In this document: positions 1,925 to 44,787 of the stretch, one piece after another
How the letters are laid out: each line of letters begins with the position of its first letter
How positions within the stretch are numbered: the first letter of the stretch is position 1
Assembly (NCBI GenBank): GCA_964637955.1
Contig: CAZWXQ010000004.1
Span: 11,368-75,367 of the forward strand
Length of the DNA: 64,000 bases
DNA from: an uncultured Gammaproteobacteria bacterium
GTDB lineage: Bacteria; Patescibacteriota; Microgenomatia; Levybacterales; UBA12049
Reading direction: 5' to 3'
Made by a program: the position numbers and the translations under genes
The notes under the pieces: model-generated
The model's input: only the letters and a program-made list of their open reading frames with translations
The model's database searches: none
Told to the model about the DNA's origin: nothing

Positions 1925-2371
1925 TTACTTGTAGGAATCTTTAACTTGAAAAAGTGGATAAAGAAATAAAAATCCGAGAATAAATGAAGGGGAAAGTGTA
2001 ATAAGAGCTGAGATTACCCATAAAATCTGACTCCAAAACAAAAGATTCCAACCTCTTTTATTCTTTTTTCTCAAGTGTCTAAAAGCAAAAAGCATAAGAA
2101 GTCCTTCAAGAACCCCAATAACATTCACAATCATTAACTTCTGGAAAACTCCTGTCCCCTGAGTACTAAATAAATTTAAAAAGGGAGTGCCAACAATATC
2201 CATTACTGATGCGAATGTGATGAGTGCACCAAAAACCAAAGCGATGATTGGAAGAATTCTTACAATAAAATACCGGAGTTCAGTTCCGATATTTGGGAGT
2301 TTAGCATAAAAAGTCTCGAATAAATTAATTACCATGAATTTAATTTTATAAAAGCCGAGGGATAAATTCAA
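1925..2371 (-). CDS. Small integral membrane protein (about 4 TM helices), hypothetical
   Basis: Hydrophobic segments spaced through the 148-aa ORF. Confidence 0.5.
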   Translation of the reverse strand: MNLSLGFYKIKFMVINLFETFYAKLPNIGTELRYFIVRILPIIALVFGALITFASVMDIVGTPFLNLFSTQGTGVFQKLMIVNVIGVLEGLLMLFAFRHLRKKNKRGWNLLFWSQILWVISALITLSPSFILGFLFLYPLFQVKDSYK

Positions 2372-2419
2372 CGTGTCTCTCAGAATCTTCAGCGAAATAG
2401 AATAAACCTAATTCAAAGG

Positions 2420-3613
2420 TCAGCTTTCTGCTAATTTTATTATTTCCGCATCAGTTAGCGGCCTTCGGACATCATTTGCAAATCCTTTTACTCTAGATGT
2501 AAATGTTACAGAATCACCAATTTCTAATCCTAATTCTTCTGCCTTTTTCATAATTCCGTTGTGCCCCGACTCTGCTCCAATACTTATTTTTGATCCTGAA
2601 ATTCCAAATGTTTCGGGAGTAAAAATTTCATATGTTTCGGGATTTGCTAAAACTCCGGCAGCATGAATTCCTGATTCATGTGCAAAAGCATTTCTTCCTA
2701 CAATTGATTTATTTGGTGCAATAGCCATACCTGTTATTTCTTCAACAAACTTACTAGCATCAAAAATTATTCTAGGGTTGACGCTAATTATAGGTATTTT
2801 CCCCTGATCCTCAAAATTTTTGGGAAAACCAATTAGATTTGCTACTACTTCTTCCAAAGATGCATTTCCGGCTCTTTCGCCAATTCCATTAATAGTTACT
2901 TCAACTTGCCTTGCTCCGCTTCGTATTCCTTCAAGAGTATTTATTACAGCTAAACCCCGGTCATCGTGACAATGAGTCGAAATACTTACTATTCCCTTTC
3001 CCATCCTTTGATCAACACCTGATTTAATAAAACTAATAAGTCTAGCGTATTCCCTAGGTGATGCAAAGCCTACTGTATCTGGAATATTTATCGTAGTTGC
3101 ACCAGCCTCTACAGCTTCAAGAACAACTCGAATTAAAAACTGTGGATCTGATCTAGTGGCGTCTTCTGCTGAAAATTCTACGTCCTGAGTATAATTTTTT
3201 GCTCTTGTCACGGCTTCTATAGCTCTTTGAATCACCTGCTCTGGAGTCATTCTTAATTTGTCTCTCATGTGAATTTCGCTTGTAGCAATAAAAGTGTGAA
3301 TCCTTGCTCCACCTCTATCTTTTGCAGGCTCTACCGCATCCCAAGCTCTATCGATATCCCCTGCATTTGCTCGAGCTAAAGCCGCAATTACTGGCCCTTC
3401 TAATTCTGATGCAATTTCATGAACTGATTCAAATCTTTCTTGATTTGATGCAGGGAATCCAGCCTCAATTACGTCAACACCAGTTCTCTCAAGTATTTTT
3501 GCAAGTTCAAATCTTTGCTCTGGATCGACATTCACCCCAGGAGATTGGAATCCATCCCTTAAAGTGGTATCAAGTATTTTTATTCTGGTTTGATTATCTT
3601 CAATTCTTTCCAT
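2420..3613 (-). CDS. HMGL-like (DRE-TIM) synthase of the 2-isopropylmalate / homocitrate / citramalate synthase family. Short form without the LeuA C-terminal regulatory domain.
   Basis: [15 protein letters not shown] and [10 protein letters not shown] (HxH metal-binding motif) are typical of the LeuA/NifV/CimA catalytic domain. Start set at the internal Met (MERIEDN) because the annotated upstream extension is encoded by a terminator hairpin. Confidence 0.75.
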
Positions 3614-3634
3614 AAAAAAACCGCCTTTCGGCGG
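3614..3634 (-). terminator. Putative intrinsic terminator: GC stem CCGCC-GAAA-GGCGG followed by a T7 run on the minus strand
   Basis: Plus-strand sequence aaaaaaaccgcctttcggcgg at 3614-3634. It lies between the PHP-domain gene and the synthase gene. Confidence 0.5.
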
Positions 3635-3757
3635 GTACTTAAACAACAAAGCACATCCGCCTCAGGCGAATCTAAGAAGAAGTGTTGAATTACTTATATT
3701 ATGTGATAATTTTCTAGTCATAACTAACAAAATACAATACCGGAATTAATTTGTCAA

Positions 3758-5068
3758 TTAAAGTAAGCTTTCCTGCTCTACTTTTTCATCCCCTGAACTC
3801 TGCTTTGCAGAATCAATTTTTACTACACCAAATTCTCCATCATATCCTGGAGAAATGGAAATATTTCCATTTCTTACCTTGAGAATTGCATCTGCGATAT
3901 TTTTTCCTGCGACTTTTTCTATTTTATCAATCGGAGTTTTTAAAAGAATTTCAAACTCTGGAGCAATATTTTCAATCATATTTTCAAACATCGCAATTAC
4001 TTTCACGCTGGCTGGAGCCACATGCATCGTCTCAGCAATTATTTCATTTAGTGGAACCAGCTTTGCAAAAGGAGGATGATTCTTTGCAGGATCAGCGATC
4101 CATTTCACTCCACTCTTACCTGTATTCTCCGCTACTTTTTCAGGACTTTTCGCTAAGTCTTCAACCCGCTCCATTACCCCAATCGTTAAACCACGACCAC
4201 AAACAGGACAAGTAGTTCCCTTTAATTTGGTGTCTTCTGGGGAATAAACAATCTTACAATTCCTGTGTCCTGTGTAATGATATTTACCTTCTTCGGGATA
4301 AAATTCAATGGTATAAGCAATTCTATTTTCCCCACCTTTTCGCATAATTGCACGTTTTATATTTTCAAAGCTCAAATCCTCAAGCTCAAAAACTGTACTC
4401 TCTCTTCCCATTTTGATGGGACTATGTGAATCTGAAAATGAAAGAATCGAGCGTTTTTCAAGCTCTGGAATTCTCCAGTTCATAGCTGGATCTGAAGACA
4501 AACCCGTTTCAATTCCATAAATATACTTACTCATATCTCCAAAGCATTCATCTATGGAATCGAATCCTGACATAGAGCCATAAAGAGAAAACCAGGGTGT
4601 CCAAACGTGACAAGGAATAAGAAAACTTCGATCATCAATTTCCATTAACATTTCTAAAAGATCTGGAGGTTTTATGCCGACAATAGGTCTTCCATCTGAC
4701 CTCAGATTCGCTCCCCTTTTCTGCAAAGCAGAATTGAATTTTTCCGCAGTTTCAATATTGGGAACAAATAAAAGACAGTGAATTCTGTGGGCTTTTCCAG
4801 CCTGAGAATAAATACTACTTACTTCAACTGAAAGAATAAATTTCGGATCCAACTCATCAGTAGAATTTTTAAGTGAATAGACTCCATCTCCTGACTCCTG
4901 CAGATTACTTTTAATTTCACGAATCCACATTGGATGTGTCCAATCCCCTGTCGTTAAAAGCCTCATTCCTTTTTGGCGGGCGAACTTCTTCATCACAGAA
5001 AGAGTCATATTCTGAGAAACAGCGCGTGAGTATTTACTATGTAAATGCAGGTCTGCTATGACTTCCAC
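3758..5068 (-). CDS. PHP-domain metal-dependent nuclease, endonuclease Q-like (uncharacterised TIGR00375-type family)
   Basis: N-terminal IADLHLHSKYS (PHP His motif). C-terminal C-x20-CPVCG zinc-finger-like element. About 430 aa, matching the EndoQ architecture. Confidence 0.55.
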   Translation of the reverse strand: MEVIADLHLHSKYSRAVSQNMTLSVMKKFARQKGMRLLTTGDWTHPMWIREIKSNLQESGDGVYSLKNSTDELDPKFILSVEVSSIYSQAGKAHRIHCLLFVPNIETAEKFNSALQKRGANLRSDGRPIVGIKPPDLLEMLMEIDDRSFLIPCHVWTPWFSLYGSMSGFDSIDECFGDMSKYIYGIETGLSSDPAMNWRIPELEKRSILSFSDSHSPIKMGRESTVFELEDLSFENIKRAIMRKGGENRIAYTIEFYPEEGKYHYTGHRNCKIVYSPEDTKLKGTTCPVCGRGLTIGVMERVEDLAKSPEKVAENTGKSGVKWIADPAKNHPPFAKLVPLNEIIAETMHVAPASVKVIAMFENMIENIAPEFEILLKTPIDKIEKVAGKNIADAILKVRNGNISISPGYDGEFGVVKIDSAKQSSGDEKVEQESLL

Positions 5069-10319: not shown

Positions 10320-11366
10320 TTATGCCATCACATATTTCGCGCCTTTTGTGCTTCCTGATTTTTTCACTATTCCCTCTTTAATTAGACCCTTTAACTCATT
10401 AAGAATCGTGTCTTCTGAGACCATCGGAAATAATGACGCAAAACTCTTGTTTTGAAGATAACCTATTTTCTGAATATATTCAATTATCTTTATTTGGCGC
10501 TCAGTAAGCATGATGGGTTTGCCTCCAAGTTTTTCTTTCAGATGCGCATCAATCGAAATATTCTCAACTTTTTCTTTTATCTTAGTAAGCTCAATTGAGA
10601 GTCCTTTTGTGAAATATTCCAGCCAAACAGTCTGGTCTCCATTAAATCTTTGGACTGACTTTAAAGCGTCATAATAATCCAGAGAATCACTATCAAAATA
10701 TTCTTCAAGTGAAAAGAATTTGCGGATATCATAACCTTCCAGAAATAAAATCAAAGTAGATAAGGCGCGTGAAACTCTTCCGTTTCCATCAACAAATGGA
10801 TGAATGCGGACCAGTTCATAATGCACAATTCCTGCTTTTAGAACCGGATGAACATCATTATCTTCTAAGTTTACAAACTCCAGAAGTTCTTCAACTTCAA
10901 ATGGCACTGCAATTGATGGCGGAGGCTTAAAGCTTACCTCCCCTGTCAGACTGTTTTTAACTACCACTTGAGTCTCTCGATATTTTCCAATTTTTTCATC
11001 GGGTAATATTTTTTCAACTGTTAAGCTGTGGAGTTTTAAAATTAATTCTTCGTTAATTTCAAGTCCTTCATTTCCTGAAAGCTCTCCAATATAATCCATC
11101 ACTTTTCTATAATTTAATACCTCTTGAATATCTCGATCTCTTGCTAACACTTCATGTCCTTCCAGCACTCTTTCAGCTTGGGAAAAATTTAATTCATTTC
11201 CTTCTATGTGAGTTCCGTAGTGAACTGCTCGAATCAAAGCTTCTTTTCTAAATTCTTTTTCATAATATGGAAGAAGTGGAGCATGATCTATGACTTCACG
11301 AGCAGCTTCAATAATCCCTATACTTTTGAGGATTTTATTAGTGATATGAAAAACTGGACTATACAT
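10320..11366 (-). CDS. fic: Fic family protein (AMPylation/Fido domain)
   Basis: HPFVDGNGRVSRAL is the canonical Fic motif HPFx(D/E)GNGR. Confidence 0.9.
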   Translation of the reverse strand: MYSPVFHITNKILKSIGIIEAAREVIDHAPLLPYYEKEFRKEALIRAVHYGTHIEGNELNFSQAERVLEGHEVLARDRDIQEVLNYRKVMDYIGELSGNEGLEINEELILKLHSLTVEKILPDEKIGKYRETQVVVKNSLTGEVSFKPPPSIAVPFEVEELLEFVNLEDNDVHPVLKAGIVHYELVRIHPFVDGNGRVSRALSTLILFLEGYDIRKFFSLEEYFDSDSLDYYDALKSVQRFNGDQTVWLEYFTKGLSIELTKIKEKVENISIDAHLKEKLGGKPIMLTERQIKIIEYIQKIGYLQNKSFASLFPMVSEDTILNELKGLIKEGIVKKSGSTKGAKYVMA

Positions 11367-33069: not shown

Positions 33070-34266
33070 TTAAATTCTCCTATTGGAAATAAGTCTCCAG
33101 CCTGAATTTGATTCTCCTAAACCTTTATCCTCTGTATCCGATGACAAATCTTGATCCTCTATCGGAGCAAATTGTCCCCACTTATATCCTCTATCCCCAA
33201 GTCTCTGAAGAGAATCTCTCCAGGCATAAGTTCTCACTGAAAAATTTAATGGAGCTCCAAATGTTTTATATACAATATTCTTAGCTGCATCTAAGCTTCC
33301 TTCTGGATTCACTAAAGCATCTGCCATTCTTATTCCATGTGCCTTAGGATAAATGACTACTATTTGAGGCCTCTCTTCCCCATCTTTCGGTGAATATTCC
33401 TGCGTTAACTGCTCTACTCCACGAGCAAGATACATTCTCCTAGCCTGCTCAAAATCCAAAACTAGCTTTTCAAATTTAGAAATCTGGTCCTTATTAAATA
33501 TTCCCCTTCCTAATTTTCGCTGAGCAAAAATCGAACCATCCCAAATTATTCCTGCTTCTAAAGCAAGCAAATAAGGCGCTAAGTTCATATTCTGATTCAT
33601 TCCTATTCCTCCACCCAAAAAACCTGCTGCAACCAAACTTGACCTAAATATATCTCGTACGGCCATGTATGAAGGCTTATTCGCAATATCAGCTACGGCC
33701 ACTGGCTTATTCTGTCTCTGAACAAAGTCTGCAAGATTCTTTGCAAACATCATTCGATCTTTATTATCTACAAACATAAGGTGTTCCGCATGCTTCCTCA
33801 ATGGAGACTTCTTAAGATTTCTTTCTAACTCAGGATAAAAATATTCTGCTACCACTAATTTTGTTCTATCTGACCCTATAAATTTCCCAATATAGGGATC
33901 TGGAGAATTATCTGAATGTTCGAAATCTACTGAAAGAACATCAACCCCATTCATTCTTACTCCCGTTACGCTTTCTTTAATAAACTGATCCAGGCTAGCT
34001 CTCTCAATAGAGCCTTGATACCCTGAATGTTGATCTATACTAAGATCTTTTACAGCTGAAGCTAAAATTTCATCATGAGTTAGATATCGAGGTTTTGCGG
34101 GATCATTTTCTATTACTTGAACATTCTCCGGTACAAAAGGCGTAGCTTCTAAGCCATCCATAGGATTATTTATTTGCAATGATTCTGGTGATAAATCGGC
34201 AGCCATATGATTGTGGCTGTGACGGGGTTGGAAAAACGTCAAACGTCTCTTCATCGCATCAAACAC
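33070..34266 (-). CDS. Hypothetical protein
   Basis: 398-aa ORF. Confidence 0.5.
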   Translation of the reverse strand: MFDAMKRRLTFFQPRHSHNHMAADLSPESLQINNPMDGLEATPFVPENVQVIENDPAKPRYLTHDEILASAVKDLSIDQHSGYQGSIERASLDQFIKESVTGVRMNGVDVLSVDFEHSDNSPDPYIGKFIGSDRTKLVVAEYFYPELERNLKKSPLRKHAEHLMFVDNKDRMMFAKNLADFVQRQNKPVAVADIANKPSYMAVRDIFRSSLVAAGFLGGGIGMNQNMNLAPYLLALEAGIIWDGSIFAQRKLGRGIFNKDQISKFEKLVLDFEQARRMYLARGVEQLTQEYSPKDGEERPQIVVIYPKAHGIRMADALVNPEGSLDAAKNIVYKTFGAPLNFSVRTYAWRDSLQRLGDRGYKWGQFAPIEDQDLSSDTEDKGLGESNSGWRLISNRRI

Positions 34267-34285
34267 GACTTCGCCTGAGCCATTG

Positions 34286-34359
34286 TACCAGGGGTGGGAG
34301 TCGAACCCACGACCTTAGGTTTATGAATCCTATGCTCTAACCAACTGAGCTACCCTGGC
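34286..34359 (-). tRNA. tRNA with anticodon CAT (Met or lysidine-Ile2). CCA is not encoded.
   Basis: Hand-folded cloverleaf: GCCAGGG / TA / GCTC-AGTTGGTTA-GAGC / TAGGA-TTCATAA-ACCTA / AGGTC / GTGGG-TTCGACT-CCCAC / CCCTGGT-A. G1-U72 wobble. Confidence 0.8.
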
Positions 34360-35056
34360 GTGCTAGTCCTTCGATTAATCCTATTATTTTATAATAAATA
34401 CGTGCCGGTTTACTAACTTTAACAGACAAAGTTCCATAATGTTCATTGAAATTATCGTAAATTTTCTTACTTTTTACCTTTTTAAAACTAGTTTTCGTGA
34501 ATTGATCTAATGGAATTCCTGTCATCTCAGACCAATAATATTTAACTAACTGTTCTCTTTTACGATGGGTTTCATTAATTCCAACATAACACCTCATTTG
34601 AGAAATTGGAATTCCAAAGCACGTTTGCAACCAAATCAGGAAGAATTTTATCATTTTAGGATCAGAGTTGCAAAGTTCTATTTTGCGAGTTTTCTTGCTT
34701 CCTTCTCCCCAATACAAAGCTAAACCCGCAATTAATAACTCTCTCTCGGTCATTCCTGAAAGATATTTTAAACCATCTATTCTTGACTCTTGAATTAATT
34801 TTAATCGTCGATTTTTTTGCTCCAATGCGTTTCTTAAACGACCTAATTCTGCACCTTTAATTTTTGATTTTCTCAATTCTTCTAATTGCTCTACGGAAAG
34901 CACAATATCTCTAACCCAAATACTTACTGTGCTTTTTGAAATCTGAAGTTCAGAAGCAATTTTTTTAACGCTTAATCCATTTTTTCTTAATTTTCTAGCC
35001 TCTAATTTAAGTAATGATTTCGCCATCGAACCTACAATATATAATAGTATTAACAC
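34337..35056 (-). CDS. HTH plus LAGLIDADG-like (single-motif) homing-endonuclease-family protein. Its 3' end overlaps the tRNA 5' end by about 22 nt.
   Basis: N-terminal HTH (KLRKNGLSVKKIASELQISKSTVSIWVRDI). LLIAGLALYWGEGSKK resembles the LAGLIDADG motif with its catalytic acidic residue. Confidence 0.45.
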   Translation of the reverse strand: MLILLYIVGSMAKSLLKLEARKLRKNGLSVKKIASELQISKSTVSIWVRDIVLSVEQLEELRKSKIKGAELGRLRNALEQKNRRLKLIQESRIDGLKYLSGMTERELLIAGLALYWGEGSKKTRKIELCNSDPKMIKFFLIWLQTCFGIPISQMRCYVGINETHRKREQLVKYYWSEMTGIPLDQFTKTSFKKVKSKKIYDNFNEHYGTLSVKVSKPARIYYKIIGLIEGLARQGSSVG

Positions 35057-35079
35057 TATATCTTAGGTTTTAATTATTG

Positions 35080-35108
35080 TCAATTAACAGTTGGGGTGCT
35101 ATAATACC
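35080..35108 (+). promoter_or_regulatory. Sigma70-like promoter: TTGTCA (-35), 17-nt spacer, TATAAT (-10)
   Basis: ttgtcaattaacagttggggtgctataat. It would drive the candidate ncRNA. Confidence 0.5.
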
Positions 35109-35114
35109 TGAACG

Positions 35115-35440
35115 CGCGGGGTAGTGTACAGTGCACGTGAGGCTTAATTTAATGGGCCGTTTTGATAGTAATACCAAAAATGAACTCAGCTATTTCGGTG
35201 AACTCCTAAATTTTATTAAGGACAATACCGAGGGAAGACTCGCTTAGGCGAGAACCCGTAGAGACTACACGCTGGGCTCCTAAGCAATCAAGGATTTATA
35301 CAAAGCTTGCCAAAGGATGAAGATATAGTCCGACACTCTGAGTAATCGGAGATAACAGATAGCATAATCTCACAGGCTAGGCGCAACTCCTAGCCCCGCA
35401 ACAAATTTAATGGAGGCATCAAGCCTCCATTTTCTTTAAT
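35115..35440 (+). ncRNA. Candidate structured non-coding RNA of about 320 nt (class unknown), or a long regulated leader
   Basis: A 450-bp gene-free region carries a consensus promoter, several stable hairpins (ctcgc-ttag-gcgag, ggctagg-cgcaact-cctagcc) and an intrinsic terminator. It may contain a 31-codon small ORF (MGRFDSNTKNELSYFGELLNFIKDNTEGRLA). Confidence 0.35.
35412..35440 (+). terminator. Intrinsic terminator: ggaggc-atcaa-gcctcc followed by a T-run
   Basis: ggaggcatcaagcctccattttcttt on the plus strand. Confidence 0.6.
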
Positions 35441-35506: not shown

Positions 35507-36763
35507 TTGATTTTAGCTAAATTTTATCCTATAATAATCGCCGTGAATATGGAAAATAGATTTAGCACACCAATTCAATCAAGTAACGACAGAGGATCTT
35601 TTTATAAAGACGGCCTTGGTATAGGAAAACTTGAGGACAGTCTTGCCAATTATCAAAGAGAGCATGATTTGCGAATTGAAGGCTTAAGAGGCAGTCTTAA
35701 TCAAACAGAGGTAAACATTTTAGAAGCAACTCTAGAACAAGCAAAACAGGCTGGAATTATTACCCTACCCCCTGAATTACAAGACAAAGGTTGGTTTGAA
35801 TTATTAAAAGAAGGTCAAGGAAATGAATTCTATTACCGCTATGGATACTTAAGGCAAATTCCTGAAACCATAGCAGAACTTCGCTCAAAACAAGAACCAT
35901 TATTTTTTATGCCTCATGACTATAAAGATGTTACATTTGAAAATTTTGAGATGCGATGTGATGGACACGAAAAAGCATGGACACTCTTAACTCATTTTGG
36001 CCCAACTCCACCAAAAGGATTATATCTTTGGGGTAATTATGGAACAGGAAAAACTCACCTAATCGCTGCATTTGCACGTGGCCTCCAGGCAGAAATAACT
36101 GCAGGCACATTTGGTAGAATTGCTGATTTCGCTGGCTCTTCAATAGCACAGTACGAAGCTGCATGGAAAGAACAAATGGAACCAGCAAAGCAGGCAGAAC
36201 GAGCAGCATATGATAAATGGAGAGCAGATTCTGCTAATACATCAAAAGGCTATAAAGAATGGCAAACCAAAGAAGGTCAAGTCAAAGCTTTACAAATAGA
36301 ACTAGATCGAATTGTTCCTAGAAATCTCAGAAGAGCAAAAGATGCTTATCCTTTCCAACCCTCTGACATAGCATTTGCAACATTTGATCATCTTATGGAA
36401 CGCTCAGGGGACGAAGAATTTATGAATAAATTTCTTAGCAGAAGAATAGTTATCATAGACGATGTTCATCCAAAAGATGACAGAGCAAGGCTAGATTTTA
36501 TTCAAAGGATAGTAGAAAAACGCTACAATGAATATAGATCAGGCGCTACATTCTTCACAAGCAATCTTTCTCCTGAAAAAGTTCTGGTAGGATCAAACTA
36601 TCCCAAAGAAATAGGTGAAAGAGGCCACAGTAGACTTCGCGAAATGACAATGCCCATAGAATTTGATTCTACAGATTACAGATTAAAAATAGCAGAGCAG
36701 GCAGACGCAGACTTATTAAGACTAGTGGAACAACTTAGGCAAGATCAACCCAGAACAGAATAA
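35507..36763 (+). CDS. DnaC/IstB-like AAA+ ATPase (helicase-loader family) with an N-terminal extension and an insertion of about 110 aa between Walker A and B
   Basis: LYLWGNYGTGKTHLIAAFA (Walker A), RIVIIDDVH (Walker B), FFTSN (sensor I). Alternative start at MENRFS (35549). Confidence 0.65.
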   Translation: MILAKFYPIIIAVNMENRFSTPIQSSNDRGSFYKDGLGIGKLEDSLANYQREHDLRIEGLRGSLNQTEVNILEATLEQAKQAGIITLPPELQDKGWFELLKEGQGNEFYYRYGYLRQIPETIAELRSKQEPLFFMPHDYKDVTFENFEMRCDGHEKAWTLLTHFGPTPPKGLYLWGNYGTGKTHLIAAFARGLQAEITAGTFGRIADFAGSSIAQYEAAWKEQMEPAKQAERAAYDKWRADSANTSKGYKEWQTKEGQVKALQIELDRIVPRNLRRAKDAYPFQPSDIAFATFDHLMERSGDEEFMNKFLSRRIVIIDDVHPKDDRARLDFIQRIVEKRYNEYRSGATFFTSNLSPEKVLVGSNYPKEIGERGHSRLREMTMPIEFDSTDYRLKIAEQADADLLRLVEQLRQDQPRTE

Positions 36764-36764
36764 C

Positions 36765-37550
36765 TTAAATTACTTCTGAGCCCACTTCTATCCCAAGCGT
36801 ATCAGCAGCACTCTTTCCTTGAACGATTATTTCCAAAAATCTTTTATCCCCTAGGCCAGAACTTCCAATAGTAACTGCCGCTTCCCCCACTGGTACATCG
36901 CGAAGCTGTGTGTAACATTTAATTTCTCCGAACTTAGTATTAAGTATTTTCCCAGGCTCAAATCCTACATCTTCTTTAAGCAAAGTTGTTTTACAATTTC
37001 CAAAATTATCTACCCACCAGACAGCATTTGGCGCGTCTTCAACTTCATCTATTGAATACTTCTCATGAGGAACTTCGAGCCCATCCTCAATCCACTTAGC
37101 AAGACGCGGCATATAATCAAAACTTCGGAATTGTGACTTTGCAATGGTATCTCGAAGATGTGGGTCTAGATGTCCTTCTTTTATCATATGGTCAACAACA
37201 GTTGGCACGTCTGTTAGACAAATTTCTGGTGTCAAGCTGAATTTCTTTACAAGAGACAAGCATAAACCGTCGATTGTAGTAACTACCAGAGTTTTTCTAT
37301 AATAGAAGTATCCAAAAGGAGTTCCGTTTGGCCATTTTTTCTTATGTCTAGGCGCTGAATTTACTAAAAGCACGCCATTTTGACCATCTGAAGCGTCTAA
37401 AACATCAATTATGTTTCCACTAGCCTCAAGCTCTGAATAATTATTTATGGCAACTAAGCTAGGGTTTAACCCGAAGAGTGTGGAAATGCGTGTGGCCTGA
37501 CGCCCCATCGTATTTCCATCGTGGCAATCGTTAATAATAGTAACGAACAC
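36765..37550 (-). CDS. Possible SAM hydroxide adenosyltransferase (DUF62, fluorinase/chlorinase-like) family protein
   Basis: N-terminal TIINDCHDGNTMG follows the DUF62 pattern (tDFG..D.yvG) loosely. 261 aa. Weak assignment. Confidence 0.35.
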   Translation of the reverse strand: MFVTIINDCHDGNTMGRQATRISTLFGLNPSLVAINNYSELEASGNIIDVLDASDGQNGVLLVNSAPRHKKKWPNGTPFGYFYYRKTLVVTTIDGLCLSLVKKFSLTPEICLTDVPTVVDHMIKEGHLDPHLRDTIAKSQFRSFDYMPRLAKWIEDGLEVPHEKYSIDEVEDAPNAVWWVDNFGNCKTTLLKEDVGFEPGKILNTKFGEIKCYTQLRDVPVGEAAVTIGSSGLGDKRFLEIIVQGKSAADTLGIEVGSEVI

Positions 37551-37974: not shown

Positions 37975-38835
37975 ATGAATCCGATTACATTGGCGAAGGC
38001 CAGTTCAGAGTTTAAGAATTTTCTTAAAGAAAAGGGTCATTCGACCTCAACTATTGTAGCATACGGCAAAGATATTGAGCAGCTCGTAGACTTTTTAAAC
38101 AAGGCTGGAAAACAAAATGTAGATGAAGTAACTCAACAAGACATTGAGGGATTTCTCGCGAAAATGAACGAGGAAGGATACACTCCTAAGTCAATTTCAA
38201 GAAAAATCAACTCAACAAGAACTTTCTACAGATTCCTTAAAAGTAACGGCTATGTTAAAGAAGATCCTTCCCTTCTCGTTGCACACCCAAAGTATCAACT
38301 CGCTCCACCTAGAATCCTTACTCCTACCGAATACAGAGCGCTAAGAGATGCAGCAAGAAATGATGCAAGAATGAGTGCAATCATCGAACTTCTACTTCAG
38401 ACAGGTATAAGGATCGGAGAACTTACCGCTCTAAGACTCTCAGACATCCATAAAGACTCACTTCATGTTCCAGCTATGGAAAAGCACGAAGAAAGAAGTG
38501 TACCCCTTAATAAAAGAGCTCAGGAAGCTTTAAATAAGTATCTAGAAGTGCGCCCTAAGGTAGAAGAAGATCATTTATTTATCACAAAAAGCGGAAAACC
38601 ATTCTTAATCAGAAACATCAGAACTAGTATCGAGAGATATTTTAGACTCGCTGAAATAAAAGATGCTAAAGTAAATGATCTTAGACATACATTTGTAGCC
38701 CACCACCTAAAACACGGAGCTTCAATAGTAACTCTCTCTAAAATCCTAGGACACAAGAGAATCTCAACAACTGAAAGATATCTCGAATACGTTCCAGATA
38801 GAGCTTCAGAATCCCAAGTCCTCTCAGAACTATAA
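37975..38835 (+). CDS. xerD: Tyrosine site-specific recombinase, XerC/XerD-like
   Basis: N-terminal SAM-like core-binding domain. The C-terminal domain carries R...HxxR...Y (DLRHTFVAHHLKHG...TTERYLEY). Confidence 0.85.
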   Translation: MNPITLAKASSEFKNFLKEKGHSTSTIVAYGKDIEQLVDFLNKAGKQNVDEVTQQDIEGFLAKMNEEGYTPKSISRKINSTRTFYRFLKSNGYVKEDPSLLVAHPKYQLAPPRILTPTEYRALRDAARNDARMSAIIELLLQTGIRIGELTALRLSDIHKDSLHVPAMEKHEERSVPLNKRAQEALNKYLEVRPKVEEDHLFITKSGKPFLIRNIRTSIERYFRLAEIKDAKVNDLRHTFVAHHLKHGASIVTLSKILGHKRISTTERYLEYVPDRASESQVLSEL

Positions 38836-39511: not shown

Positions 39512-39586
39512 TGGTGGGTTAGGATGGAGTCGGACCATCGACATCTACTTTATAAGAGTAGCGCTCTACCGCTGAGCTACTAACCC
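39512..39586 (-). tRNA. tRNA with anticodon TAT (Ile-UAU). CCA is encoded.
   Basis: GGGTTAG-TA-GCTC-AGCGGTA-GAGC-G-CTACT-CTTATAA-AGTAG-ATGTC-GATGG-TCCGACT-CCATC-CTAACCC-A-CCA. Acceptor, anticodon and T stems are fully paired. The T-loop is unusual (UCCGACU). Confidence 0.7.
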
Positions 39587-39831
39587 AAATTCTTACTAAT
39601 TAACCATTCTATATATTTTTTACTTTTATAACTTTTAAGCTTTCTTTCTCTTTTTAAAACTTCTGATTTTGTTTCAAATTTCTCTGTGTAAACTAGCTTA
39701 TCTGTTTTTAAAATCCTAGTAGTTCTAGTCTTACCAATTAGATGCTGATTTAATCTTTGATCTAAATCACCAGTTGATCCAATATAATATCTCCCGGTCT
39801 CTTCATTCTTCAGAATGTATAACCAAAACAT
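39580..39831 (-). CDS. GIY-YIG nuclease family protein (small, YhbQ/UPF0213-like)
   Basis: MFWLYILKNEETGRYYIGSTGDLDQRLNQH is the GIY-YIG catalytic motif. Overlaps the tRNA 5' end by 7 nt. Confidence 0.75.
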   Translation of the reverse strand: MFWLYILKNEETGRYYIGSTGDLDQRLNQHLIGKTRTTRILKTDKLVYTEKFETKSEVLKRERKLKSYKSKKYIEWLISKNLG

Positions 39832-40468: not shown

Positions 40469-42433
40469 ATGATTGAAAAAGGTCTTCAACCTATATTTGA
40501 CGCCAATGAAGGCAATGGTTCTTTTGGCAAACCTGGAGGCATATCTGACGACGATAGTTATGGTGCTTATGAAAGAGACAAATCCATACCTATTCCTGTT
40601 GTTGTCGATGAAAGACCAGCGCTTGATAGAATTATTGCAGAACTTGATCAGGAAAGAAGAGGTCGATTTCGTCCGACCTATCCAGTATCTCCAATAGAAG
40701 AACCTAAGATTTTTCCCCCAGACACTAAAGAACCAAAGTACTTAGAAGGGTTTAATTCAGGTATAACAGGAGCAAGATTAAAAGTTGCAGGTGTTGATAT
40801 TGCAAGAACAACGATATTTAATCCCCTATCGAGAAACGAGTATGCAGGTGGGACAGAACTTACCCAGGAAGGTATAGAAAAAATTAAACAGTTTTTAAAA
40901 GACAAGGGCTACAGTAATGATGCGCTTGAATATTTAAGTGAGACAGGGGTTTTTGGAAGTATTTTTGCAAACTTAGTACTTAGAACAGAGTCTAATCAAA
41001 TAATAGAAGCAATAAACAATACTGACTTTAAATCTTCAAAAAGAAATTCCTCCGGTTACTATGACTCTATTGAGCCATATTTAGGCTTCTCATATCAAAA
41101 TGAAGCTATAGATGCAAGCATACCGTCTAGTGATAGCAAAAATGACGATCAAAGAAGATTATCAAGAAAAGGTGCGACCAGACTTTTCAGAATAGGCACA
41201 CCTAGAGTTTTAGAAAACTATAAAGTAGCTGATACGCCTATTGTTATTATCGGAGGAGGACCAGCAGGACTTCTTACTGCAAATGCTTTAGTAGATTTAG
41301 GATTCGCTTCTCATAATATTACAGTTCTAGATAAATCGGGTGATTTTGGTGGAATTTGGAAGCAGAAAAATGTTGCGGGAGGATCCAAGAATAATCCTTT
41401 TGACATTAATTTTAGTGGAATCAGGATTGATGCCGCACCAGGTCCCGGATCTTCAATAAGCATCTTTCTTAGGGATATCGCAAAACGTATGGAAAGAAAT
41501 AATGAAGAGGTAGGAGTAGTAAAAGGAAAGGTTACCAGAATAACACCTGGTGATTTAAATCATACAGTGCATTACATAGATGAATCCGGCACTGAAACAA
41601 CTCTAGAAGCTCCGATTGTAATTAACGCTATCGGAAATGGAAAGCCATTACCTCCAAATAGAGAAGGCTATATGACAACTCCAATTAAAGATGGTCAAGC
41701 AGGAATCAGATGGCAGCAAATAATTACTCCTGAAAAAGCTGAAGAATTTAGCGGCAAAACAGTAGTTTTTGTAGGACTTGGAAATAGTACTGCAGAAATG
41801 ATGCAGCAAATTGAAGATTATAATAAATTAGGATACGGCATAAACTACCGCGTTTTAACACACTACCCCTATGAAGCCATTCAAAATCCAGACTCTTTAG
41901 TTAGAATGCCTGATGGAAGAGAATTTAAAGTATTCAGAGACATAAAAACTCCAAATCTAACTAAATTTGAAGGAGATTTACCTGAAATGAGAACTGTTTA
42001 TGATGCTGCTGTAAGAAAAGGAAGAATAATTTCTGATGTAGTCAATTGGGATGTTAAAGACAAATCAATAGTAGCTAGAACTAAAGACGGCACAGAAATA
42101 ACTATTCCGTTTGCACAGCTTTATACTTTAATTGGCTACAGACAAGATCCTGAAGCTCTTAGAGCCATGGGGATGACAGTGGTTGATGAATATACAGGCG
42201 AGATTGCTTATGATTATGACGGTGAGATTCAAAGAAAGCCAGGAGAAGTTGGAAGGAAAAGAGTGCATCCTGGCTACTTCGGTATCGGAGCAGTTCTTAA
42301 ATCACCTTCAAATCCAAATGCAGAAGTAATACCTGGAATTCAACATAGACTTTATGATTTACTTTTTGGAGTAATTATGAGATCAGCTGAATCTGCTGCA
42401 AGAAAAGAAAAACCTCAGAAAAAAAGACGCTAA
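40469..42433 (+). CDS. FAD/NAD(P)-binding oxidoreductase (flavin-monooxygenase-like, two Rossmann motifs) with an uncharacterised N-terminal extension of about 230 aa
   Basis: IVIIGGGPAGLLTANAL (GxGxxG) and VVFVGLGNSTAEMMQQI (second dinucleotide-binding motif). Confidence 0.55.
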   Translation: MIEKGLQPIFDANEGNGSFGKPGGISDDDSYGAYERDKSIPIPVVVDERPALDRIIAELDQERRGRFRPTYPVSPIEEPKIFPPDTKEPKYLEGFNSGITGARLKVAGVDIARTTIFNPLSRNEYAGGTELTQEGIEKIKQFLKDKGYSNDALEYLSETGVFGSIFANLVLRTESNQIIEAINNTDFKSSKRNSSGYYDSIEPYLGFSYQNEAIDASIPSSDSKNDDQRRLSRKGATRLFRIGTPRVLENYKVADTPIVIIGGGPAGLLTANALVDLGFASHNITVLDKSGDFGGIWKQKNVAGGSKNNPFDINFSGIRIDAAPGPGSSISIFLRDIAKRMERNNEEVGVVKGKVTRITPGDLNHTVHYIDESGTETTLEAPIVINAIGNGKPLPPNREGYMTTPIKDGQAGIRWQQIITPEKAEEFSGKTVVFVGLGNSTAEMMQQIEDYNKLGYGINYRVLTHYPYEAIQNPDSLVRMPDGREFKVFRDIKTPNLTKFEGDLPEMRTVYDAAVRKGRIISDVVNWDVKDKSIVARTKDGTEITIPFAQLYTLIGYRQDPEALRAMGMTVVDEYTGEIAYDYDGEIQRKPGEVGRKRVHPGYFGIGAVLKSPSNPNAEVIPGIQHRLYDLLFGVIMRSAESAARKEKPQKKRR

Positions 42434-44787
42434 AGTTGAGCTCTCTCCCCTATTACCTGCTCAATAACGTTTACGTCTTTTCCATACTTAAGACGAGACA
42501 ATTCTTTAATAAGTTCTGAAACTCTTGGATTCATCGCTGCTTTTTCTGCTGTCATGTCTTTAGTCGTATCAAGAGAAAAAGGCGGAACCGGTTCGCCATT
42601 TACGACTGAGCGCATATAGCAATTGAAGCGATCAATGTTTATAAGATCTGACTCATTAAACGTCGGCTGGAACTCGTGCTGAAGATAATTTGCATCTGTA
42701 ACTCCAACACGAAATGAGGCTAGCGTACCCACATTTCCGAAAATAGCATTCTTAACCTCTTCTTCCATCTGCCCTATAAACTGATTGGCAACAATTAGAT
42801 CAAGACGATATTTTCTAGCCTCTGAAAGAATCTGGGCGAAGTCTGGAGTTGCGAAGTTTTGGAACTCGTCAACATAAAGATAAAAATCTTTTCTTTGATC
42901 CATAGCCATATTCTGTCTACTCATCGCAGCAATTAGAATTTTTGGAACTAGAATAAGACCTAAGAAACTTGAATTTTCTTCTCCAATTTTTCCTTTTGAA
43001 AGATTTATAAGTAAAATTTTCTGATTATCCATAACGTCTCTCATATTAAAAGCTGATTGAGATTGGCCTATGATATTTCTCATGGTTTTGTTAGTAACAA
43101 ATCTTCCAAATTTGGATACGATATAATCCAAAGTTTCAGACTTATGAAAATCTGATGTCTGTGCAATCTGATCTGTCCAATAACGTCTAACGATCGGATC
43201 CTGAACGAGAGGAAGCAAACTTTGAACAAACTTTGAATCAGTAAGAACTCTAACAACCTCAATAAATGTACTTCCAGGCTGATACATAACTGTAAGCATC
43301 GCGTTTCTGATCGCATGCTCAAAACGAGGTCCGATAATGCCAGTTTTATTCGGATCATAAAGCTTATACATAAGCCCAACTATACTGGAAACCACATAAT
43401 GCTTTTCTTCCTCAGTATCTGCCTCGAGCATGTTCACTCCCATTGGCCTAGATGTGTCTGAAGGATCAAACAGAATTACATCCTCTGCTCTTTCCGGTGG
43501 AATTTGTTGCAAAATATCTTCGATTAAATCTCCGTGAGGATCAATTACGCCAACACCCTTTCCATTTTTTATATCCTGATTTATCATTTGCTTAAGAAAC
43601 TCTGTTTTTCCAGTTCCTGTTTTTCCGATGATATACATATGCCTTCTTCTGTCATCGTCCCCAATAAATACTTCTTTGGAAAGTCCTCTATATGAACTCT
43701 TGCCCAGAAACAATCCCTCGGTAGCTATATTTGCAGCCGCAGGAGCACGCTTAGAGTTAACCCAGAAAATGTTTGGGGTTGTGATTGCTTTATTTGGGAA
43801 GTGAAAAAGAGTAGCCAGTTCTTCAGAATTTAAAACTCCGGTGTGTGATTTCTTAGGCATAAATCTGTAAACAAACTCATCCATAAATGCCTTTTTATTT
43901 CTAAGTTTATTTTGAGTAAACTCATTCAAGCCTTCGAACTGAGCAAAATTATGCTCTATATTATTTAAATGTGCCTCTGCAGACTCATGTGTAGTTGAAG
44001 AGACCACAATTCTAATTACAGCATCAAATCCAGGTTTTCCGATTTTACTTTCAATTCCTTCCAGCTCTTTTGGATCAACGGAATATTTTGCGGTTTCAGG
44101 ATTTGATTCATCTTTTTTCGTGTGAGAGATATGTGCTCTCCCTGCTTTTTTCCAATCTGAACCCGCTCCTGTAATTGCAATCTGAATTGCTGCTCCCTCC
44201 CCCTCTGTCATCTTTGCAAGAGTTGAAGTAATAGAGCTCATTGGGTCTGTTGCTAAATCTTTATAAACTTTAAGAGGTTTAAAATTTTCCTCCTTAAGCC
44301 TTAATGAAGCAAAAGCGACATGTGAATTCTGTGCAAAAATATTGTAATCATTTCCAACCACAAATCCCTCTTTAAGAGATTTTTTTTCGCTAACTTCTGT
44401 AATTTCAGCATCAGGATAAGCTCCGTTTATTTGTTTTTCTACGAAATCTTTATATTTATTTGGAGTGGAAACATAGTATCTGATATCTCCTGGCATTCCC
44501 ACAATTTCAAAAGTCATCGTAGGCTCTGCATGCATAAAAGAGAATCTGCCACCACCATGAACTGCAACAAAACTTGAGAATAATTGCTCTGCTGCATCAA
44601 TTTTTATTTCATTATCACGAGGCAAAGCTATTTGAAGAAGAGTAGAATCAAGCGCAGCTTCTTTGCTTACTTTAAATTTATAGTTTTGCATAAAAAAATA
44701 AACAGCAACACTACCCACTACTGCCAGAAGAGCAGAAAAAGTTGCCAAGAAAATTAAGAAAACTATAATAGCTAATATATCTCCCAT
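42430..44787 (-). CDS. Membrane-anchored P-loop ATPase of the FtsK/HerA/VirD4-VirB4 (type IV secretion or DNA-translocation) superfamily
   Basis: N-terminal TM helix. Walker A IIGKTGTGKTEF followed by VIDPHGDL. Walker B LYVDEFQNF. RKYRLDLIVANQ. 785 aa. Confidence 0.6.
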   Translation of the reverse strand: MGDILAIIVFLIFLATFSALLAVVGSVAVYFFMQNYKFKVSKEAALDSTLLQIALPRDNEIKIDAAEQLFSSFVAVHGGGRFSFMHAEPTMTFEIVGMPGDIRYYVSTPNKYKDFVEKQINGAYPDAEITEVSEKKSLKEGFVVGNDYNIFAQNSHVAFASLRLKEENFKPLKVYKDLATDPMSSITSTLAKMTEGEGAAIQIAITGAGSDWKKAGRAHISHTKKDESNPETAKYSVDPKELEGIESKIGKPGFDAVIRIVVSSTTHESAEAHLNNIEHNFAQFEGLNEFTQNKLRNKKAFMDEFVYRFMPKKSHTGVLNSEELATLFHFPNKAITTPNIFWVNSKRAPAAANIATEGLFLGKSSYRGLSKEVFIGDDDRRRHMYIIGKTGTGKTEFLKQMINQDIKNGKGVGVIDPHGDLIEDILQQIPPERAEDVILFDPSDTSRPMGVNMLEADTEEEKHYVVSSIVGLMYKLYDPNKTGIIGPRFEHAIRNAMLTVMYQPGSTFIEVVRVLTDSKFVQSLLPLVQDPIVRRYWTDQIAQTSDFHKSETLDYIVSKFGRFVTNKTMRNIIGQSQSAFNMRDVMDNQKILLINLSKGKIGEENSSFLGLILVPKILIAAMSRQNMAMDQRKDFYLYVDEFQNFATPDFAQILSEARKYRLDLIVANQFIGQMEEEVKNAIFGNVGTLASFRVGVTDANYLQHEFQPTFNESDLINIDRFNCYMRSVVNGEPVPPFSLDTTKDMTAEKAAMNPRVSELIKELSRLKYGKDVNVIEQVIGERAQL

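Follow-up and report, generated by a model that had tools for sequence, protein, structure and literature searches.

The question raised by one gene in a 64,000-nucleotide (nt) stretch of contig CAZWXQ010000004.1 (assembly GCA_964637955.1, GTDB lineage Patescibacteriota; the whole stretch is called the window here) is what an ATPase with the engine of a helicase loader does in its host. The first-pass annotation had described the product as a non-canonical DnaC/IstB-like ATPase with an insertion between the Walker A and Walker B motifs and an extra N-terminal domain, a description that our analysis bears out. It had also suggested a phage-derived replication initiator, or a new module with a neighboring RNA and a gene resembling S-adenosylmethionine (SAM) hydrolases. 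We conclude that the protein is a stand-alone, strain-variable ATPase of the AAA+ loader clade and belongs to a subfamily so far undescribed. We give an even chance to its acting as an ATP-gated, self-assembling adaptor for DNA or for a partner, the partner probably not being DnaB.

The limits of the gene and its presumed promoter are as follows.

35507..35535, + strand: promoter-like site TTGATT-17-TATAAT, a putative promoter by consensus match only (10 of 12 positions)
35549..36763, + strand: coding sequence of the armed DnaC/IstB-clade AAA+ ATPase, 404 amino acids (aa) from ATG 35549, stop codon included

The frame is open without interruption on the + strand to 36763, and the list of open reading frames (ORFs) gave it as 35507-36763, that is, as a protein of 418 aa from a TTG codon, the form in which it was initially described. 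We correct this to 404 aa from ATG 35549, because the database protein P0001, recovered by a search of 5.8 billion clusters, has 404 aa and is 100% identical to the window ATPase, because the N-termini of the homologues in the family alignment all align at the Met of this ATG, and because the TTG lies inside the promoter-like site. The simplest view of TTG 35507 is that it forms the −35 box of a promoter belonging to the gene and is not a start codon; the leader between this site and the ATG would be very short.

The core of the protein, as judged from its sequence and from an AlphaFold2 model for which the family alignment of 14 sequences was the input (mean predicted local distance difference test score [pLDDT], 87.7; predicted template modeling score [pTM], 0.77), is a member of the DnaA/DnaC/DnaI/IstB initiator/loader clade of AAA+ ATPases. 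Its landmarks, with residues numbered on the 404-aa protein, are the following.

36032..36055, + strand: Walker A/P-loop GNYGTGKT (G162-T169); G162, G165, K168, and T169 invariant in alignments A1 and A2, G167 invariant in A1 and nearly so in A2
36347..36445, + strand: strand beta2 and a short helix pair, at the position of the initiator-specific motif (ISM) of DnaC/DnaA-type AAA+ proteins; A275, F276, F279, and D280 invariant
36446..36475, + strand: Walker B IVIIDD (I300-D305; D304 and D305 invariant in the family alignments), followed by the family signature H307-P308-K309
36557..36565, + strand: sensor I T337-S338-N339; N339 invariant, aligned with the TTN of DnaC
36629..36634, + strand: S361-R362, putative arginine finger (box VII, SRL); R362 invariant in 34 of 34 sequences
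36680..36682, + strand: R378 (DYR), putative sensor II arginine at the start of the single C-terminal lid helix H377-399; invariant

The Walker A, Walker B, and sensor I motifs, already picked out at first reading, are present and invariant in the family. Across the 34 sequences, down to 21% identity, the invariant residues comprise G162, G165, K168, T169, D304, D305, E323, R325, N339, R362, and R378, and H307 is at least 90% conserved even across the wider family. R362 and R378 occupy the positions at which DnaC-type proteins carry the arginine finger (box VII) and sensor II, respectively, and on this alignment we take them to be the putative counterparts. The segment from beta2 to Walker B equals that of Aquifex DnaC in length and is modeled as short helices (H279-284 and H289-296). 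Foldseek comparison with the PDB returned the DnaI and DnaC loaders and IstB as the closest solved structures, and viral models (BFVD) gave the same families; RFC and Cdc6 reached only 11 to 12 in the fold comparison.

Sequence profiles placed the protein in the same neighborhood and at a distance from every named family. The DnaC-like helicase loaders of PHROG 50 matched with 88 bits in two stretches. Among NCBIfam models, scores were 62 bits for PRK08116 (cutoff, 189), 41.7 bits for DnaI (NF006505/PRK08939; cutoff, 228; residues 132-201 only), 37.7 bits for ZapE (NF040713; cutoff, 140), 23.6 bits for IstB (NF038214; cutoff, 200), and 15.7 bits for the enterobacterial DnaC equivalog (NF005931/PRK07952; cutoff, 357). 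None of the curated models for DnaC, DnaI, IstB, and ZapE reached its cutoff, and at scores so far below these values the protein is no plain DnaC or DnaI ortholog. Two further assignments were rejected. Pfam AFG1_ATPase (PF03969) scored 29.3 bits against a cutoff of 27, but over profile positions 58-87 only (30 of 361); the ZapE/AFG1 matches are confined to the P-loop, and the automatic label "AFG1-like ATPase" is wrong for this protein. A role as IS21 helper was dismissed on the lack of IstA and of inverted repeats and on the IstB score given above; an IstA-like transposase is missing in the window and at all related loci, as had been stated for the locus from the beginning.

The family differs from all characterized members of the loader clade in two features, a helical arm and an N-terminal domain without detectable relatives.

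36083..36346, + strand: insertion of about 88 residues (179-266), an antiparallel helical arm ahead of beta2, defined by the split DnaC alignment and the AlphaFold2 model
35549..35893, + strand: N-terminal all-helical domain (about residues 1-115), with model helices H12-48, H52-67, H82-88, H93-98, and H100-111

The insertion between Walker A and Walker B is real, at about 80 aa and not the 110 aa first estimated. phmmer splits the alignment with Aquifex DnaC (3ECC) into query 147-178/chain 30-61 and query 266-375/chain 70-182, so that query residues 178-266 face chain residues 61-70 and exceed them by about 80; the PRK08116 alignment is split likewise. The spacing from the Walker A Lys to the Walker B Asp is 136 aa in the window ATPase versus 56 counted in the 3ECC alignment. 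In the model, the P-loop helix continues unbroken as the 59-residue H168-226 instead of ending at about 15 residues, and the chain returns through H231-253 and H255-266 into beta2, with pLDDT of 81 to 96 throughout the arm. A model of the archaeal homologue P0005 shows the same arm (H157-209 and H216-243; pLDDT, 84.8). The distance between the two Walker motifs varies over 34 relatives from 109 to 235 aa, with about 50 to 180 aa of extra arm length, and the arm sequence is poorly conserved within the family; the insertion therefore behaves as a variable-length structural arm. The arm alone had no match in Pfam, in the PDB profile search, or in the 5.8-billion-protein database.

The N-terminal domain had been put at about 180 aa, whereas the model shows about 115 aa of helices and a linker ahead of the AAA+ core. 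It had no Pfam match at E ≤ 5, its best PDB profile had an E value of 0.21, and a search of the 5.8-billion-protein database with the domain profile came back empty. The whole ATPase has a single Cys, at position 137, and hence no zinc-binding cysteines in this domain. Structure prediction described the N-terminal domain as helical and the insert as a helical arm. The DnaC/DnaI/IstB engine would gain a further architecture with this combination of an arm in the P-loop helix and a new N-terminal domain.

The close family is tiny. It comprises 14 proteins in the 5.8-billion-cluster database, none of them named, and 30 representatives at E < 1e-30 among 1.84 billion, also unnamed. Next in the hidden Markov model ranking stand about 40 distant armed relatives that align across the arm as one stretch, followed by arm-less DnaC-like proteins of 210 to 290 aa that appear as two-stretch matches. 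The sole named member among the distant armed relatives is a "hypothetical protein" in a metagenome-assembled genome (MAG) of Bdellovibrionota, and tblastn found further armed relatives in MAGs of PVC bacteria (Lentisphaerae, Verrucomicrobia, and Victivallales); a second database search for names in the wider family gave no informative annotation. Two of the distant armed relatives, P0035 and P0036, are longer by about 200 aa at the C terminus, where repeated TPR/SNAP-like units rich in A, E, and K are added, a hint that protein-interaction modules are recruited in this family.

Close family members are found both among ultra-small bacteria of the candidate-phyla type and among archaea of the DPANN type. 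The window is bacterial, encoding MurD, DivIC, two class A penicillin-binding proteins (PBP1), FtsH, RecF, and Fpg, and so is the contig of P0010 (L004; bL31, RF1, SSB, and bS6). The contig of P0007 (L005) is archaeal (S3Ae, L31e, S19e, L35Ae, and Cbf5), as is that of P0005 (L001), which encodes an EF-Tu/eEF1A-type GTPase with the eEF1A C-terminal domain and a chaperonin of the Cpn60/TCP1 family. P0012 (L089) adjoins RNase P p30, which indicates an archaeal context, and L009, a locus from a Nanoarchaeia MAG, also contains an archaeal RNase P RNA. The family crosses the boundary between bacteria and archaea at 43 to 45% identity. A neighbor-joining tree grouped the members from archaeal contexts together, with the clade of the window protein as their sister and with the P0010/P0011/P0014 clade and the bacterial armed relatives outside; this topology fits a bacterial origin and a transfer into DPANN archaea, although it is only indicative. 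The ATPase family would be a clean example of gene sharing between bacteria of the candidate phyla radiation (CPR) and DPANN archaea. We found no paper linking helicase loaders with CPR; two papers in which both DnaC and DPANN occur name DnaC once each, and a survey of DciA in preprint form makes no mention of CPR or DPANN.

Archaea are known to replicate with MCM and Orc1/Cdc6 and are not known to use DnaB. As the family is kept in archaea, its partner is probably not specific to DnaB, a point that bears directly on one alternative, namely, that the protein is the host's real replicative-helicase loader, a divergent and possibly phage-derived analogue of DnaC/DnaI that loads DnaB at oriC or at restart sites through its N-terminal domain. 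The closest structures and profiles are indeed those of DnaI, DnaC, and phage DnaC-like loaders, and an F-x-x-F segment and the start of the AAA+ domain align with DnaI. Such a history would also have a precedent, in that PMC9865707 describes DnaC/DnaI loaders as phage-derived replacements of the ancestral DciA. However, at least four members lie in unmistakably archaeal contigs, the zinc motif of DnaI is lacking from a protein with one Cys, and the scores fall far short of the DnaC and DnaI cutoffs. Furthermore, neither dnaB nor a primase gene nor dciA is found among the about 50 window ORFs scanned, and the ATPase gene is missing at the syntenic site in two close relatives, which would be odd for an essential loader unless the gene resides elsewhere in those genomes. 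Overall, we consider this alternative unlikely. Upkeep in archaea with intact motifs, together with dispensability at the locus, makes a DnaB-specific essential loader less likely than a partner-agnostic role as adaptor or in DNA remodeling.

The locus itself argues for a gene that stands alone. It is flanked by the two elements with which a joint module had been proposed.

35115..35402, + strand: tRNA-Met(CAU) gene split by a group I intron (exons 35115-35144 and 35363-35402; intron 35145-35362, 218 nt)
36765..37508, − strand: divergent DUF62/SAM-hydroxide-adenosyltransferase-like gene, convergent with the ATPase gene (247 aa from ATG; GTG 37550 would give 261 aa)

The first of them, previously listed as a candidate noncoding RNA, is this split tRNA gene. 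Rfam RF00028 matches the intron at full length with 71.9 bits (gathering score, 50), and ARAGORN reads the joined exons as tRNA-Met(CAU). The intron interrupts the tRNA after U33, with a U before the 5′ splice site and a G at the intron end. Its boundaries are proven by a syntenic relative of the window (contig L174), in whose tRNA (10768-10860) the window exons are contiguous, aligning to the adjacent bases 10813 and 10812, with no intron. The gene has its own promoter (TTGTCA-17-TATAAT, 35077-35105) and a terminator consisting of a hairpin and a T run (35409-35431); with the promoter-like site ahead of the ATPase gene, this indicates that the ATPase begins a new transcription unit. The intron lacks an ORF. 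The C1/A72 mismatch of the tRNA is an initiator-type acceptor end. Initiator tRNAs typically also have three G-C pairs in a row in the anticodon stem, which this one lacks; it may be an initiator or an elongator.

The second element is a convergent gene, as had been noted, and its stop codon lies 1 nt from that of the ATPase gene; its resemblance to SAM hydrolases extends to the C-terminal half only. Pfam SAM_HAT_C scored 37 bits (cutoff, 25.5) over residues 163-246, the C-terminal beta-barrel domain, whereas the N-terminal domain of SAM_HAT went undetected in Pfam even at E ≤ 5. The NCBIfam SAM hydrolase model gave 24.6 bits against a cutoff of 350, and PDB 2cw5 matched the C-terminal part only, with an E value of 0.45. 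The N-terminal half is too divergent for Pfam and PDB sequence searches, which makes the enzymatic identity uncertain; close relatives of the protein (≥90% identity) are annotated as hypothetical.

Two syntenic relatives, L174 and L176, were reached via the neighboring genes, the former being the one aligned at base level. L174 shares about 80% nucleotide identity with the window over FtsH, TrpRS, TGT, MurD, the SAM_HAT-like gene, DivIC, Xer, and TrwB. In it, MurD, tRNA-Met (−), tRNA-Met (+), and the SAM_HAT-like gene are contiguous, with no ATPase gene, and the distance from the tRNA to the SAM_HAT stop codon is 27 nt, compared with about 1.36 kb in the window, which accommodates the terminator, the promoter, and the ATPase gene. 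In L176, SAM_HAT is directly followed by MurD, again with no ATPase gene between them. The absence of the ATPase gene from the same site in two syntenic relatives marks it as an accessory gene in a variable hotspot around the tRNA-Met pair; the pattern could reflect an old gain, an allelic replacement, or loss in the relatives. The SAM-hydrolase-like gene is a stable resident, functionally unlinked to the ATPase.

These comparisons leave a near-zero chance that the ATPase works with the upstream RNA, with the SAM-hydrolase-like enzyme, or with both. Physical proximity, in the window only, speaks for such a module. Against it, the RNA is a tRNA-Met with an intron and its own transcription signals, the intron-less tRNA of L174 exists without the ATPase, and L174 and L176 keep the SAM_HAT-like gene in its absence; moreover, there is no group I intron at nine other family loci and no SAM_HAT at the other family loci. 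The pairing of the RNA with the ATPase is therefore not conserved, and the module was rejected on synteny and on the separate transcription signals.

The hotspot shows four differences between close relatives: a 398-aa ORF, a helix-turn-helix (HTH) ORF, the intron, and the ATPase gene. The 398-aa ORF (33070-34266, −), located between MurD and tRNA-Met (−), is absent from the syntenic site in L174 and L176 and had no match in Pfam, NCBIfam, PHROGs, or PADLOC. The second ORF (34337-35056, −; 239 aa; N-terminal HTH_23, 29.9 bits), likewise absent in L174 and L176, occupies the space separating the two divergent tRNA-Met genes, its final 23 nt being shared with the 5′ end of tRNA-Met 34285-34359 (−). 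A LAGLIDADG-like stretch, LLIAGLALYWGEGSK, was seen in it by eye, unconfirmed by Pfam, and the ORF may be a free-standing gene of the homing-endonuclease type. A similar arrangement of a small nuclease-like ORF abutting a tRNA recurs farther along, where tRNA-Ile(TAT) (39512-39586, −) is directly preceded on the same strand by an 83-aa GIY-YIG ORF (39580-39831, −), the two overlapping by 7 nt at the stop of the ORF and the beginning of the tRNA; L174 keeps only the tRNA region of this stretch. Beyond it, a 785-aa TrwB/VirD4-like coupling protein or HerA-type ATPase (42430-44787, −; TrwB_AAD_bind and DUF87), kept in L174 at about 80% nucleotide identity (2261-4621), suggests that this small genome encodes a type IV-like apparatus or one for DNA translocation. 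The tRNA-Met hotspot, whose intron is seen at base resolution to be present in one genome and absent in the other, offers a useful marker of recent flux in a genome of reduced size.

Gene neighborhoods elsewhere in the family are equally variable. When the ORFs of 22 loci were compared all against all by BLAST, no neighbor gene proved to be conserved in the close family, apart from Xer, and the gene lists of ten loci and Pfam scans of further loci show neighbors that differ from locus to locus and are mostly housekeeping. At the 22 loci, dnaB and genes for a helicase, a primase, a transposase, or SAM_HAT were absent from the family loci outside the window, and no cognate helicase or primase, a possibility raised at the outset, came to light in either the window ORFs scanned or these loci. 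The Xer exception consists of a XerC/D-type recombinase gene at 37975-38835 (+), at most 1.2 kb from the ATPase gene, and of one in L091 (2743-3357, −) directly downstream of the P0014 gene. This recurrence is probably a coincidence, since Xer stays in relatives without the ATPase.

Presence or absence next to tRNA-Met genes, in a segment that has also gained an intron, the HTH ORF, and the 398-aa ORF, invites the view that the ATPase is cargo or a remnant of a mobile element, i.e., the replication or target-selection ATPase of an uncharacterized plasmid, virus, or IS21-like or Tn7-like element of ultra-small prokaryotes, now left alone beside a tRNA. The crossing between bacteria and archaea at appreciable identity and the place of IstB among the top structural matches would agree with it, as would a direct repeat of 27 nt with a period of 1445 bp in the contig of the closest homologue (L175; P0002, 61% identity). 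That contig is 1479 bp long and has the same 27 nt, TATCGCAAGAAAATTTGGTGTGGGCAC, at 4-30 and at 1449-1475; its order resembles a circular permutation, with the 3′ part of a small ORF, the ATPase gene, and the 5′ start of a similar ORF. A mini-circle, a tandem duplication, or an assembly artifact could explain the repeat, as could paralogous genes on the two flanks. On the other side, none of the loci has a gene for a transposase, an integrase, Rep, or a capsid protein next to the ATPase gene, no direct or inverted repeats, attachment-site-like ones included, surround the ATPase gene in the window, the composition of the gene (GC, 0.38; GC at third codon positions, 0.23) is close to that of host genes, and the IstB score is far below its cutoff. 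A scan of IMG/VR yielded no relative, and tblastn against GenBank phages and PLSDB plasmids gave only short Walker-region matches of 18 to 25% coverage, to ordinary DnaC/IstB-like genes. We regard a mobile remnant as quite improbable. The earlier idea of a phage-derived replication initiator finds no support but keeps some probability: the nearest annotated profiles are indeed phage DnaC-like (PHROG 50 and BFVD), but no member of the subfamily appeared in these three collections, and a large part of the family occurs in archaea.

An accessory, patchily distributed, horizontally spread, stand-alone gene in a variable hotspot might also encode a conflict or defense ATPase, with one gene supplying an accessory NTPase for sensing foreign DNA or proteins, as many defense NTPases with coiled coils do. 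Toxin-antitoxin genes occur within a few kilobases in L001 and L009, and there are weak structural echoes of BrxC. Nonetheless, the protein consists of the N-terminal helical domain and the AAA+ core, with no effector domain (nuclease, TIR, or protease), the neighbors are mostly housekeeping genes, and PADLOC returned nothing meaningful, its best match being BrxC with 12 bits over 20 residues. The chance of this explanation appears slim.

We thus return to the reading of a stand-alone adaptor. DnaC, DnaI, and IstB are matchmakers that assemble with ATP and deliver a partner to DNA, and their clade uses a trans-acting arginine and the sensor II arginine for ATP-dependent polymerization. By analogy, ATP binding would drive head-to-tail self-assembly of the window ATPase into an arginine-finger-coupled oligomer, as in DnaC and IstB. 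The oligomer would probably form on DNA, contacted by the beta2/ISM face, and ATP hydrolysis would serve as the switch for release and return the assembly to its starting state. Holding or positioning the partner or substrate may fall to the N-terminal domain together with the variable arm, and that partner could be a target shared by bacteria and archaea or simply DNA. That the family is kept intact in archaea, which are not known to have DnaB, and likewise in bacteria points to a new partner.

Four considerations weigh against this reading. Oligomerization, DNA binding, and the role of the arm are all extrapolated from DnaC and IstB. The tree is rough and carries no support values. The family loci are contigs and not complete genomes, a limit that bears both on DnaB in the archaeal hosts and on a second loader in this bacterium. 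Finally, composition is uninformative on recent transfer, and the absence of the gene in relatives could represent loss rather than gain.

A broader version of the adaptor proposal, which we put forward tentatively and hold to be somewhat unlikely, is that armed DnaC-like ATPases form an unrecognized functional class exchanged between ultra-small, episymbiotic CPR bacteria and DPANN archaea and acting on a domain-independent target. The coiled-coil arm and the N-terminal domain would then engage DNA itself, a helicase or motor other than DnaB, or a component of host-symbiont or virus conflict. If true, the DnaC/IstB engine would here have taken on a different task and would not be a modified replicative loader. 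For the subfamily as a whole, practical impact stays limited until a partner or a phenotype comes to light.

Comparison with known systems places the window ATPase beside several families. IstB (5BQ5, 8Q3W, and 8Q4D) has no arm, whereas the window ATPase has no IstA at any locus and no terminal inverted repeats. With AFG1/ZapE (PF03969), it has in common the P-loop segment GLYLWG-x-x-G-x-GKT, while its remainder aligns with DnaC-type proteins. Possible architectural analogues are the HslU I-domain and SMC/Rad50-type ATPases, in the latter of which an antiparallel coiled coil parts the Walker A half from the Walker B half; in both, an elongated, mostly helical element between Walker A and Walker B reaches the substrate or partner. 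They differ from the window ATPase in ATPase class or insertion point and have no sequence relationship to it; its arm is short (about 45 residues per strand) and has no hinge or zinc-hook motif. The closest likeness is to DnaI and Aquifex-type DnaC (2W58, 2QGZ, 4M4W, 3EC2, and 3ECC), PRK08116, and PHROG 50, which have the same AAA+ loader-clade core. Shared with them are the DD-type Walker B, the RY-N after Walker B, the TSN sensor I, the SR arginine box, the terminal sensor II arginine, the single lid helix, and the F-x-x-F segment before the P-loop. Unlike them, the window ATPase has an arm of about 80 aa (50 to 180 aa across the family) between the Walker A helix and beta2, an unrelated N-terminal domain without a zinc site, and HPK after Walker B, and its family, free of any linkage to dnaB, is present in archaea.

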